Sequence record: NC_041919.1
Reading direction: 5' to 3' (one strand)
DNA: 64,000 nt
DNA from: Escherichia phage HP3
Shown here: positions 25,407 through 40,322 of the stretch, piece by piece
Numbering within the stretch: position 1 is the first letter of the stretch
Layout: each line of letters starts with the position of its first letter
The notes under the pieces: model-generated
Told to the model about the DNA's origin: nothing
What the model saw: only the letters and a program-made list of their open reading frames with translations
Database searches by the model: none
Position numbers and translations under genes: made by a program

Positions 25407-26609
25407 ATGAAAGTATGTATTTTTATGGCTCGAGGTCTTGAAGGTTGTGGTGTAACAAAATTCTCACTCGAGCAACGTGATTGGTTTATTAAGAATGGTC
25501 ATGAAGTAACTTTGGTTTATGCTAAAGATAAATCATTTACTCGTACAAGTTCTCATGACCACAAATCATTTTCAATTCCAGTTATTTTAGCTAAAGAATA
25601 CGATAAAGCACTTAAGCTGGTAAATGATTGTGATATTCTAATTATTAATTCTGTTCCTGCTACTTCCGTTCAAGAAGCCACGATTAATAACTATAAAAAA
25701 CTTTTAGATAATATTAAACCTTCTATTCGTGTTGTAGTTTATCAGCATGATCATTCTGTTCTTTCTTTGCGTCGAAATTTGGGATTAGAAGAAACTGTTC
25801 GTCGAGCTGATGTTATTTTTAGTCATTCTGATAATGGCGATTTTAATAAAGTTCTGATGAAAGAATGGTATCCAGAAACTGTTTCTCTGTTTGATGATAT
25901 TGAAGAAGCACCAACAGTATATAATTTTCAGCCTCCTATGGATATTGCGAAAGTTCGATCAACCTACTGGAAAGATGTTTCTGAAATTAACATGAATATC
26001 AATCGTTGGATTGGTCGTACGACTACATGGAAAGGTTTTTACCAGATGTTTGATTTTCACGAAAAATTCTTAAAACCTGCTGGTAAATCCACTGTAATGG
26101 AAGGTCTTGAACGTTCCCCTGCTTTTATTGCAATTAAGGAAAAAGGTATTCCGTATGAATATTACGGTAATCGTGAGATCGATAAAATGAATCTCACGCC
26201 GAATCAACCGGCACAAATCCTAGATTGTTATATTAATAGTGAAATGCTTGAACGAATGAGTAAATCTGGCTTTGGATATCAGTTGAGTAAACTTAACCAG
26301 AAATACTTACAACGCTCACTAGAATATACTCATCTTGAATTAGGTGCTTGCGGTACAATTCCTGTTTTCTGGAAATCTACTGGCGAAAATTTAAAATTCC
26401 GTGTTGATAATACTCCTTTGACCTCGCATGATAGCGGTATCATTTGGTTTGATGAAAATGACATGGAATCAACATTCGAGCGTATTAAAGAACTGTCATC
26501 TGACCGAGCTCTTTATGACCGTGAGCGAGAAAAAGCATATGAATTTTTGTATCAGCATCAAGATTCAAGCTTCTGCTTTAAAGAACAGTTTGACATTATT
26601 ACAAAATAA
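25407..26609 (+). CDS. a-gt: DNA alpha-glucosyltransferase (400 aa)
   Basis: 400 aa; N-terminus CIFMARGLEGCGVTKFSLEQRDWFIKNGHEV as I recall for T4 AGT. Confidence 0.92.
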   Translation: MKVCIFMARGLEGCGVTKFSLEQRDWFIKNGHEVTLVYAKDKSFTRTSSHDHKSFSIPVILAKEYDKALKLVNDCDILIINSVPATSVQEATINNYKKLLDNIKPSIRVVVYQHDHSVLSLRRNLGLEETVRRADVIFSHSDNGDFNKVLMKEWYPETVSLFDDIEEAPTVYNFQPPMDIAKVRSTYWKDVSEINMNINRWIGRTTTWKGFYQMFDFHEKFLKPAGKSTVMEGLERSPAFIAIKEKGIPYEYYGNREIDKMNLTPNQPAQILDCYINSEMLERMSKSGFGYQLSKLNQKYLQRSLEYTHLELGACGTIPVFWKSTGENLKFRVDNTPLTSHDSGIIWFDENDMESTFERIKELSSDRALYDREREKAYEFLYQHQDSSFCFKEQFDIITK

Positions 26610-36406: not shown

Positions 36407-36443
36407 ACAACTATCAACTACTGATACGGATTTGGAGAATAAA

Positions 36444-36680
36444 ATGAAAATTGTTATGGGTTGCTTAGCAGTTTGTTTAGTTGCATTAGCAGCAGTTCCA
36501 TTTGTTAGTGTTGAAAATGATACTCAACCTGTGATTGAATCTAGCACTGTTATTCACACTAATGGTAAAATATCAGTTAAAATTGATGATAATCTTCATG
36601 TGAATACAAATGGATCTTTAGGTGTGCAAATGGGTAATACCTGCATAAGCACTACTGGAGTAATTACTACTTGTATTTGA
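36444..36680 (+). CDS. secreted small protein (78 aa)
   Basis: ATG 36444 after GGAG SD; signal-peptide-like MKIVMGCLAVCLVALAAVPFVSV. Confidence 0.5.
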   Translation: MKIVMGCLAVCLVALAAVPFVSVENDTQPVIESSTVIHTNGKISVKIDDNLHVNTNGSLGVQMGNTCISTTGVITTCI

Positions 36681-37078: not shown

Positions 37079-37330
37079 ATGGAAACTTTAGTAACAGGTT
37101 CAATTTTTATGGTTTTAGTTTCAGGTGTGTTGGCTATTATTATATACATGCTTCCATGGTTTATCGCCTTGATGCGTGGGTCAAAATCGACAGTAGGAAT
37201 CTTTTTCACATCTTTACTGTTTAACTGGTCAATTATTGGTTGGTTTATTACATTTATTTGGTCAATTGCGGGTGAAACTAAAAAGTCTGCACAGCCAAAT
37301 CAAGTAATTATCATCAGAGAGAAGGAATGA
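37079..37330 (+). CDS. imm: superinfection immunity membrane protein Imm (83 aa)
   Basis: 83 aa, two TM segments; position upstream of gene 42. Confidence 0.8.
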   Translation: METLVTGSIFMVLVSGVLAIIIYMLPWFIALMRGSKSTVGIFFTSLLFNWSIIGWFITFIWSIAGETKKSAQPNQVIIIREKE

Positions 37331-37476
37331 AAAGCAAAATTATAGCAGTGTTGCTTTTAATCTTGATGATTATAATAAGTATATACTATAGTGTAACGGT
37401 TCCTCTTATGATTCCAACTATTATTTTAGGTTGGAGTTTATTACTGTTACAAGTTAAATATGAATGTATCAATTGA
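37327..37476 (+). CDS. small membrane peptide (49 aa)
   Basis: ATGA overlap with imm; hydrophobic; read from sequence, below track cut-off. Confidence 0.35.
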   Translation: MKSKIIAVLLLILMIIISIYYSVTVPLMIPTIILGWSLLLLQVKYECIN

Positions 37477-37483
37477 GGTTTAA

Positions 37484-38224
37484 ATGATTAGTGACTCTAT
37501 GACAGTTGAAGAAATCCGTCTTCATTTGGGGCTTGCATTAAAAGAAAAAGATTTCGTAGTTGATAAAACTGGTGTTAAAACTATTGAAATTATTGGCGCA
37601 TCATTTGTAGCAGATGAACCGTTTATTTTTGGCGCTCTTAATGATGAATACATTCAGCGTGAACTTGAATGGTATAAATCTAAGAGTTTGTTTGTTAAAG
37701 ATATTCCAGGTGAAACACCAAAGATTTGGCAGCAGGTAGCATCTTCTAAAGGCGAAATTAACTCGAATTATGGTTGGGCTATTTGGTCAGAAGATAACTA
37801 TGCCCAGTATGATATGTGTTTAGCTGAACTTGGTCAAAATCCTGATTCTCGACGTGGTATCATGATTTATACTCGTCCATCTATGCAGTTTGACTACAAT
37901 AAAGATGGTATGTCAGATTTCATGTGTACTAATACAGTACAGTACTTGATTCGTGATAAGAAAGTCAATGCGGTAGTAAGCATGCGCTCAAATGACGTGG
38001 TCTTCGGATTCCGTAATGATTATGCATGGCAAAAATACGTATTAGATAAATTAGTATCTGATTTGAATGCAGGCGATTCAACTCGTCAGTATAAAGCAGG
38101 TTCTATTATATGGAATGTTGGAAGTCTTCATGTATATTCTCGTCATTTTTATTTGGTTGATCATTGGTGGAATACTGGCGAAACTCATATTGTGAAAAAA
38201 GACTATAAAGGTGAGTGGAAATGA
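37484..38224 (+). CDS. 42: dCMP hydroxymethylase gp42 (246 aa)
   Basis: 246 aa; thymidylate-synthase-like fold position; synteny. Confidence 0.9.
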   Translation: MISDSMTVEEIRLHLGLALKEKDFVVDKTGVKTIEIIGASFVADEPFIFGALNDEYIQRELEWYKSKSLFVKDIPGETPKIWQQVASSKGEINSNYGWAIWSEDNYAQYDMCLAELGQNPDSRRGIMIYTRPSMQFDYNKDGMSDFMCTNTVQYLIRDKKVNAVVSMRSNDVVFGFRNDYAWQKYVLDKLVSDLNAGDSTRQYKAGSIIWNVGSLHVYSRHFYLVDHWWNTGETHIVKKDYKGEWK

Positions 38225-39063
38225 TTCAATTCGTAATTCCAAGTTATCAACGTGTCGGGGCAGTTTCTGCCCTTAATATGTTTCCGACTGATTATGAACC
38301 CCATATTGTGGTGCGTGAACACGAAGAAAAAGCTTATTATGATGCTTATGGGTCTAGAGCTAAAATTGTAACTATTCCTGATGATGTTAATGGAATTGCC
38401 GGTACTCGTAAAGCAATTACTGATATGTATGCAGGTCAACGAATCTGGATGATTGATGATGATACTACTATTCGTATGAGTTCAATACGAAAGAGAGACG
38501 ATAAACGGCGTGTAGATAAAATTAATCAATTAACTCGTGAACAGTTCTATGAATTAATTCAATACGTTGAAGATGCCATGGATTGCGGGTATTATCACGG
38601 TCATGCTCGTCTACCAATTTTTAAAATTACTTCATCTTGGGGCAATTATCGTGAAAACTCATATGGATTCACGAATACATGGTATGACCTCGGAAAACTT
38701 ACGACAGAACAAATTGGGTATGGAAAAATTGATTTATGCGAAGATATGTATGCATTTCTCAATTTAATTAATCAAGGTTATCCGCATTTGGCCTTGTTCA
38801 AATATCTAGTTGTATCTGGAAAATCACACGCTCCCGGTGGGTGTAGTTCAATTCGTAGTAATTCTAAACATAATAGAGCGCTTGAGCAAATCAATAGAGA
38901 GTTTCCAGAGCAAGCTCGTTGGAAAACATCGAATATTGAAAAACGAAAATCGTTGGGTGAAGAAGACGAGCCATTAAAGGTTCTTCGCATGTGTGTTTCG
39001 CGTAAAGAAAAATCAGAAGCATTTCATAAGTTTAATGCTATTCATCCAATAGCAGTTGATTAA
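38215..39063 (+). CDS. GT-A-type glycosyltransferase at the beta-gt locus (282 aa)
   Basis: DxD motif IWMIDDDTT; not the 351-aa T4 beta-gt; may correspond to the beta-alpha-glucosyltransferase of T2/T6-type phages. Confidence 0.55.
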   Translation: MEMIQFVIPSYQRVGAVSALNMFPTDYEPHIVVREHEEKAYYDAYGSRAKIVTIPDDVNGIAGTRKAITDMYAGQRIWMIDDDTTIRMSSIRKRDDKRRVDKINQLTREQFYELIQYVEDAMDCGYYHGHARLPIFKITSSWGNYRENSYGFTNTWYDLGKLTTEQIGYGKIDLCEDMYAFLNLINQGYPHLALFKYLVVSGKSHAPGGCSSIRSNSKHNRALEQINREFPEQARWKTSNIEKRKSLGEEDEPLKVLRMCVSRKEKSEAFHKFNAIHPIAVD

Positions 39064-39140
39064 TGCCTAAATTTATTGTGTTATAATTACTATATCTTTA
39101 ACCAGTGAGGAAAATATAATGATGCCTATGGAAAAAATGA

Positions 39141-40322
39141 ATGTCTATTGCAGATTTAAAATCCCGTTTGATTAAAGCTTCCACTTCTAAAATGACTGCT
39201 GAACTGACTACATCTAAATTCTTTAATGAAAAGGATGTAATTCGTACAAAAATTCCAATGCTTAATATCGCTATTTCTGGTGCGATTGATGGCGGTATGC
39301 AGTCTGGTTTAACTATTTTTGCAGGGCCTTCTAAACACTTTAAATCAAATATGTCTTTGACTATGGTTGCGGCATATTTGAACAAATATCCTGACGCGGT
39401 TTGTCTATTCTATGATAGCGAATTTGGTATTACTCCAGCTTATTTGCGATCCATGGGAGTTGACCCGGAACGTGTAATTCATACGCCAATTCAATCAGTT
39501 GAACAGCTGAAAATTGATATGGTGAATCAGCTTGAAGCTATTGAGCGTGGTGAAAAAGTTATTGTATTCATCGATTCAATTGGTAATATGGCTTCTAAGA
39601 AAGAAACTGAAGATGCCTTGAATGAAAAATCTGTGGCAGATATGACTCGTGCTAAATCACTGAAGTCATTATTCCGTATCGTTACTCCTTATTTTAGCAT
39701 TAAAAATATTCCATGCGTTGCGGTTAACCATACAATTGAAACAATTGAAATGTTTAGTAAAACCGTGATGACAGGTGGTACAGGCGTAATGTATTCGGCT
39801 GATACCGTATTCATTATCGGTAAGCGTCAGATTAAAGATGGTTCTGATCTTCAGGGGTATCAATTTGTTCTAAATGTAGAAAAATCTCGTACCGTTAAAG
39901 AAAAAAGTAAATTCTTTATTGATGTTAAATTTGACGGTGGTATCGATCCTTATTCTGGATTGTTAGATATGGCTCTAGAATTAGGATTTGTAGTAAAACC
40001 TAAGAATGGTTGGTATGCTCGTGAATTTCTTGACGAAGAAACCGGCGAGATGATTCGCGAAGAAAAATCTTGGCGTGCAAAAGATACTAACTGCACTACA
40101 TTCTGGGGTCCTTTATTTAAGCATCAACCATTCCGAGATGCTATTAAACGTGCTTATCAGTTAGGTGCTATTGATAGTAATGAAATTGTTGAAGCTGAAG
40201 TTGATGAATTGATTAACTCAAAGGTTGAAAAATTTAAATCTCCAGAAAGTAAAAGTAAATCAGCTGCTGATTTAGAAACTGACCTCGAACAGTTAAGTGA
40301 TATGGAAGAATTTAATGAATAA
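39141..40322 (+). CDS. uvsX: recombinase UvsX (393 aa)
   Basis: RecA-like Walker A GPSKHFKS; N-terminus MSIADLKSRLIKASTSK. Confidence 0.95.
   Translation: MSIADLKSRLIKASTSKMTAELTTSKFFNEKDVIRTKIPMLNIAISGAIDGGMQSGLTIFAGPSKHFKSNMSLTMVAAYLNKYPDAVCLFYDSEFGITPAYLRSMGVDPERVIHTPIQSVEQLKIDMVNQLEAIERGEKVIVFIDSIGNMASKKETEDALNEKSVADMTRAKSLKSLFRIVTPYFSIKNIPCVAVNHTIETIEMFSKTVMTGGTGVMYSADTVFIIGKRQIKDGSDLQGYQFVLNVEKSRTVKEKSKFFIDVKFDGGIDPYSGLLDMALELGFVVKPKNGWYAREFLDEETGEMIREEKSWRAKDTNCTTFWGPLFKHQPFRDAIKRAYQLGAIDSNEIVEAEVDELINSKVEKFKSPESKSKSAADLETDLEQLSDMEEFNE

Follow-up and report, generated by a model that had tools for sequence, protein, structure and literature searches.

The closest described counterparts of the locus analyzed here are those of phages T2 and T6, in which ba-gt makes gentiobiosyl-hmC, a form reported to account for 72% of the hmC in T6 and 5% in T2 (PMC6024577; PMC13216743); bare hmC is given as about 25% in both phages (bioRxiv 10.64898/2026.02.25.707755). 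T6 lacking ba-gt is described with alpha-glucosyl-hmC only, presumably at about 75% of its cytosines (PMC11078745; bioRxiv 10.64898/2026.02.25.707755); it shows greater sensitivity to the glycosylase Brig1 (PMC11078745), and its DNA becomes a substrate of BapA (bioRxiv 10.64898/2026.02.25.707755). Among Tequatrovirus phages of the Durham collection, HPLC/MS found about one-third 5-hmdC and two-thirds alpha-5-gentiobiosyl-mdC in Solly and NR1, and hmC, alpha-glucosyl and gentiobiosyl forms stand at about 1:2:2 in EL, BGP and Geo (PMC13390438). The beta-glucosyl form went undetected by HPLC/MS in Durham phages with the same gene set as HP3, and the disaccharide is attributed by the authors to a TAGT syntenic with the beta-gt of T4 (PMC13390438). 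The TAGT enzyme is reported to adopt a GT-A fold, with TarP as its closest cellular relative (PMC13216743), and the arrangement of alpha-gt with TAGT has already been described and is the commonest state in Tequatrovirus (PMC13216743; PMC13390438).

Based on our analysis of a 64,000-nt stretch of Escherichia phage HP3 (NC_041919.1; hereafter the window), we propose that the gene at 38221-39063 encodes a ba-gt of the T2/T6 type: an inverting, GT-A/GT2-like enzyme that would add a second glucose to the one placed by a-gt, yielding gentiobiosyl-hmC. We put the probability of this reading at about 95%. Orthology, gene order, family, fold class, the presence of alpha-gt and the absence of beta-gt come directly from our analysis; for the chemistry and protective role of the enzyme we rely on published work on T2, T6 and phages close to them. 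In T2, T6 and many relatives the gene, its position, fold class and product are already on record, and since alpha-gt with TAGT is usual in Tequatrovirus, the locus carries little weight as a discovery. HP3-type phages are used therapeutically, and a predicted DNA modification helps to forecast their sensitivity to modification-dependent defences.

Gene order and distribution

On the program-made ORF list, ba-gt is the one substantial ORF in the interval from gene 42 to uvsX (Table 1), and this position is that of T2 and T6, where the order runs gene 43, imm.1, imm, gene 42, ba-gt, uvsX, gene 40, gene 41. The counterpart interval in the T4 record holds b-gt (1056 nt, 351 aa) together with segA, as the initial annotation had stated. 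Neither the T4 beta-gt nor the SegA protein has a homologue in the window by tblastn, where the best E-values were 1.2 and 4.8, and the full genome of Escherichia phage HP3.1 likewise gave no match to them at E<=1. The a-gt gene, whose product would make the alpha-glucosyl-hmC acceptor, co-occurs with ba-gt; this product matches the T4 DNA alpha-glucosyltransferase 1XV5 at E 5e-277 over residues 1-400, as well as 1Y6F, in agreement with the initial view that this gene is retained.

Table 1. Positions of ba-gt, its flanking genes, a-gt and associated sequence elements in the window.
Feature	Position	Strand	Size or relation	Basis
ba-gt (ggt / TAGT), beta-glucosyl-HMC-alpha-glucosyltransferase	38221..39063	+	280 aa plus stop	Pfam, PHROG, T2/T6 identity, annotated ATG
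gene 42, dCMP hydroxymethylase	37484..38224	+		97% identical to T4 gp42 over 245 aa
uvsX, downstream flank of ba-gt	39141..40322	+		90.5% identical to T4 UvsX
a-gt, DNA alpha-glucosyltransferase	25407..26609	+		match to PDB 1XV5/1Y6F, T4 alpha-GT; a-gt in HP3.1 annotation
Shine-Dalgarno-like GGTGAG	38210..38215	+	5 nt upstream of ATG 38221	read from sequence
DDD codons GAT GAT GAT, D79-D80-D81 of ba-gt, DxD-type motif	38455..38463	+		invariant in 10/10 homologues
E174-D175 codons (LCEDMY), candidate catalytic-base 'ED' motif	38740..38745	+		D175 invariant, E174 nearly invariant
ba-gt/uvsX spacer, without segA	39064..39140	+	77 nt	tblastn with SegA

The whole window is 99.99% identical to HP3.1 (OK275722.1, genus Tequatrovirus), with two small indels and one mismatch, and the 2 kb at 37400-39400 are identical to it throughout (100%); the same 2 kb have at least 95% identity with more than 400 further T-even-type phage records. 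When the phage collection was searched by tblastn with the ba-gt protein, 687 records matched, 473 of them at 90% identity or higher, more than 400 at 95% or higher and 43 at 99% or higher; the protein of phage JEP6 is 100% identical to that of the window. T4 beta-gt matched 126 phage records, 29 at no less than 90% identity. Judged by these sequence counts, the ba-gt arrangement is the usual state and T4 is the exception. In Shigella phage JK23 and Klebsiella phage Hyena_ER38, the feature annotated beside ba-gt is a homing or "intron-like" endonuclease and not gene 42. Homing endonuclease genes thus seem to have settled repeatedly between gene 42 and uvsX: segA did so in T4, and the window has no such gene there.

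Two small ORFs lie upstream, both on the plus strand. The one between imm and gene 42 (37327-37476) encodes a strongly hydrophobic protein of 49 residues (MKSKIIAVLLLILMIIISIYY...) and overlaps the imm stop codon by 4 nt; at the protein level it is 98% identical in T4 and 86-88% identical in T2 and T6. No annotation covers this ORF in HP3.1, the T4 RefSeq record or either T6 record, and T2 PV958097 lists it as hypothetical. The other, between gene 43 and imm.1 (36432-36680), encodes 82 aa (78 aa in the HP3.1 annotation) with a signal-peptide-like N-terminus, and tblastn at E<=1e-3 found nothing like it in the T4, T2 and T6 loci. At this place T4 has a 183-nt gap only and T2 a different small ORF; going by the sequences compared, it is another variable slot of the region.

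Translation start of ba-gt

A single 282-aa ORF at 38215-39063 had been proposed between gene 42 and uvsX. That it is the only intact ORF there holds; its start does not, and the protein is two residues shorter. The sequence across the junction of gene 42 and ba-gt reads GGTGAGTGGAAATGA. The GTG at 38215 falls within the Shine-Dalgarno-like GGTGAG, and the ATG at 38221 overlaps the stop codon of gene 42 as ATGA (38221-38224). The corresponding ATG is the annotated start of ba-gt in HP3.1, T2 and T6 (AP018814), and M-IQFVIPSY is the N-terminus of every homologue in our alignment. Because of the placement of GTG inside the ribosome-binding-like element, the overlap with gene 42, the annotations and the homologue N-termini, translation almost certainly begins at ATG 38221, giving 280 aa. 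We rejected the GTG start (282 aa) as two codons too early. The ATGA overlap suggests that ba-gt is translationally coupled to gene 42.

Scanning 37300-39300 gave 13 sigma-70 promoter-like sites where 9.1 were expected and 1 terminator-like site where 0.8 was expected, both at chance level. Within ba-gt, codons 13-21 (38257-38283, +) contain a G+C-rich hairpin (GGGGCAGTTTCTGCCCT) with a T-rich run behind it, which T2 and T6 share; because terminator-like sites occur at chance level, we claim no function for it. In the spacer between ba-gt and uvsX there is a TGCCTAA followed after about 10 nt by TATAAT (around 39065-39086, +), which is absent from the list of the sigma-70 scan. Lying ahead of uvsX, this element resembles a MotA-dependent middle promoter of the T4 type.

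Protein family, fold and candidate active site

By tblastn and direct alignment, the ba-gt protein is 96.4% identical to the T2 enzyme and 95.7% identical to the T6 enzyme, in each case over all 280 residues. The alignment with the T2/T6 beta-alpha-glucosyltransferase that had been put forward at the outset is thus positive along the whole protein. Pfam assigns it to one family only, PF20691 (TET-associated glycosyltransferase, TAGT), with 40 bits against a gathering score of 27.5 and coverage of profile positions 2-205 of 205, and PHROGs gives phrog_842, "beta-glucosyl-HMC-alpha-glucosyltransferase" (E 2e-88). BLASTP revealed no similarity between this protein and T4 beta-gt (best E 4.1), and the Pfam search gave no match to PF09198, the family of T4 beta-gt. 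The HP3.1 record labels the gene "glucosyl transferase," and RefSeq relatives carry the exact enzyme name as their annotation.

No solved structure was found at E<=1 when the PDB was searched with the ba-gt sequence, and the evidence on the fold of the protein is therefore drawn from a model. A word-index homologue search yielded 11 clusters only, so the alignment is shallow (10 sequences) and the AlphaFold2 model built from it is of medium confidence (mean pLDDT 68.7, pTM 0.70): confidence is high over the first 80 residues (pLDDT 82-94) and low in the conserved loops 125-151 and 194-210 (pLDDT below 50). When the model was compared with the PDB by Foldseek, GT-A nucleotide-sugar enzymes headed the list, namely TarS and TarP of S. 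aureus, E. coli K4 chondroitin polymerase (K4CP), AvpGT and glucosyl-3-phosphoglycerate synthase (GpgS), at E 6e-4 to 5e-3 and a probability of about 1.0, with modest TM-scores of up to 0.43. On this medium-confidence model, ba-gt would adopt a GT-A fold with a DxD-type motif; the two-Rossmann-domain fold of GT-B enzymes is not what the top structural matches indicate, since these are GT-A enzymes. Of the two observations that would have spoken against the initial assignment, a full-length alignment with T4 beta-gt and the lack of any glycosyltransferase fold, neither holds: the protein does not align with T4 beta-gt (E as given above), and the model points to such a fold.

The stretch IWMIDDDTT, initially singled out as a DxD motif of GT-A type, is present as I75-T83 in the 280-aa numbering, and the structural matches of the model to GT-A/GT2 enzymes are in line with that classification. 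Its three aspartates, the Arg of PSYQR (R11) and the Asp of LCEDMY (D175) are invariant in 10 of 10 aligned homologues, down to 31% identity. By analogy with known enzymes, D79-D81 would form the site for metal and UDP-glucose, and E174-D175 is the probable catalytic base, as judged from inverting GT2 enzymes.

The sequenced copies of ba-gt in T2 and T6 differ at some of these places. There are two sequenced T6 stocks, each with a different lesion in the gene. In MH550421 (4138-4980, minus strand, locus-piece numbering), codon 10 has changed from CAG to the amber codon TAG, and the CDS is annotated from a downstream Met as 261 aa; the window equivalent, 38248-38250, is intact. In AP018814 (3001-3840, locus-piece numbering), one GAT of (GAT)3 is lost, leaving 279 aa; the equivalent run in the window is intact. 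In laboratory stocks, selection on the gene may have relaxed, or the trinucleotide run may have slipped, giving rise to such lesions. Position 11 is His in each of the three T2 records, whereas the window codes for Arg there (38251-38253); R11 belongs to the PSYQR motif, located where the nucleotide-binding domain starts. From the sequence comparison, R11H may be a candidate cause of the long-known difference in gentiobiosyl level, 5% in T2 as against 72% in T6, and we found no mention of it as such in the portions of the enzyme literature consulted. If R11H does explain the T2 level, HP3, with Arg11, is predicted to be T6-like.

Predicted glucosylation and comparison with known systems

From these results and from what is reported for relatives, we suggest the following pathway for HP3. 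Gp42 would make hm-dCMP, and replication would incorporate hmC into the DNA. The alpha-gt would then attach a glucose to hmC in alpha linkage, drawing it from UDP-glucose, and ba-gt would add a second glucose, again with UDP-glucose as donor, in beta-1,6 linkage onto the 6-OH of the alpha-glucose, producing gentiobiosyl-hmC. This beta-1,6 transfer by the HP3 enzyme is expected through its relatives, from the T6 ba-gt deletions and from HPLC/MS of phages whose enzyme is about 97% identical. Because beta-gt is absent, hmC missed by alpha-gt would stay unglucosylated, as about 25% does in T2 and T6, and beta-glucosyl-hmC would not be made. The second glucose would hide alpha-glucosyl-hmC from defences directed at it, the glycosylase Brig1 among them. 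By analogy, HP3 DNA probably contains hmC, alpha-glucosyl-hmC and gentiobiosyl-hmC, without beta-glucosyl-hmC. The initial annotation had anticipated a pattern unlike that of T4, perhaps with a second sugar as in T2 and T6, and the orthology with the enzymes of these two phages and the shared gene order argue for it. The extent of the second glucosylation is unreadable from the sequence because the T2 and T6 enzymes, with their 5% and 72%, differ at few positions. By analogy with T6, HP3 is predicted to be susceptible to GmrSD/BrxU, with partial protection against Brig1 and BapA.

The slot that ba-gt fills is exactly that of T4 beta-gt, and some phages are reported to have a TAGT homologue without alpha-GT or beta-GT (PMC13216743), which would fit an enzyme that stands in for beta-gt and places a first sugar directly on the hmC left bare by alpha-gt. 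We hold this to be extremely improbable: about 25% bare hmC is reported to persist in T2 and T6 despite ba-gt, deletion of ba-gt in T6 costs the second glucose only, and beta-glucosyl-mdC is undetected in the Durham phages with the same gene set; moreover, the two enzymes have no relation in sequence (E 4.1), and the model sets a GT-A fold against GT-B. A TAGT member with a changed donor or linkage, so that the disaccharide of HP3 is other than gentiobiose, could be imagined from its ten substitutions relative to T2 and eleven plus a stop codon relative to T6 MH550421, with S202-H203 beside the APGGCSS loop, and from the report that the partner of a TAGT homologue may be alpha-GT or beta-GT or be missing altogether (PMC13216743), so that specificity does vary in the family. 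The protein is nevertheless about 96% identical to characterised enzymes and keeps all invariant family residues; near-identical proteins are widespread (43 records at 99% identity or above, JEP6 at 100%); and gentiobiosyl-mdC is reported as measured in relatives at 97% identity (PMC13390438), the ba-gt proteins of Solly and NR1 being 97.1% and 96.8% identical to that of the window. A changed specificity of this kind is accordingly very unlikely in our judgment.

We also consider it improbable that ba-gt is inactive or nearly so, whether decayed or at a low T2-like level, with the DNA essentially alpha-glucosyl-hmC plus hmC. Lesions in the gene are tolerated in the laboratory stocks T6 MH550421 and T6 AP018814, and T2 is reported to make only 5% of the gentiobiosyl form (PMC6024577), but HP3 has an unbroken ORF that shares R11 and D79-D81 with the other aligned family members, and ba-gt is conserved at a minimum of 95% identity in more than 400 phage records. 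That the substitutions relative to T2 and T6 (e.g., S202-H203, K95/R97) shift the extent or specificity of the second glycosylation is a very unlikely proposal; if it were true, the pattern of the HP3 lineage would be unlike those of T2, T6 and the Durham phages. We therefore retain the reading of ba-gt as the T2/T6-type enzyme of the second glucose and compare it on that basis with the known systems.

Like HP3, T2 and T6 have ba-gt in ATGA overlap with gene 42, in the slot before uvsX and with alpha-gt as partner. The invariant DDD motif of the T2/T6 family is kept in HP3, whereas one Asp is deleted in T6 AP018814. Of the ten substitutions that separate HP3 from the T2 enzyme and the eleven that, besides the stop codon, separate it from T6 MH550421, none falls at an invariant family position. 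R11 is kept in HP3 and replaced by H in T2. Seven substitutions (N19, V50, I89, K95, R97, I101, S202-H203) are common to the two comparisons, and S202-H203 adjoin the conserved APGGCSS loop. HP3 ba-gt has neither of the lesions found in the sequenced T6 stocks.

T4 b-gt (PF09198; GT-B; PDB 1JG7) occupies the same slot downstream of gene 42 as HP3 ba-gt. HP3 ba-gt would resemble the T4 enzyme in modifying glucosyl-hmC DNA, in giving a product with beta-linked glucose and in using UDP-glucose. They differ in their acceptor, which would be the glucose of alpha-glucosyl-hmC for ba-gt and hmC itself for T4 b-gt, and in fold, GT-A on our model for HP3 ba-gt versus GT-B, with no sequence similarity between them (E 4.1). 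Alongside b-gt, T4 has segA, a homing endonuclease gene, in this slot; the slot of HP3 lacks it.

Among cellular enzymes, TarS/TarP and K4 chondroitin polymerase resemble the ba-gt model in the N-terminal, nucleotide-sugar-binding half with its DxD motif (Foldseek E 6e-4 to 1e-3, probability 1.0), at 12-21% identity and with TM-scores of up to 0.43. Cellular GT-A enzymes of the GT2 family are inverting, which fits the formation of a beta linkage from UDP-alpha-glucose. Their acceptor is teichoic acid or a polysaccharide, whereas that of ba-gt is a sugar on DNA.
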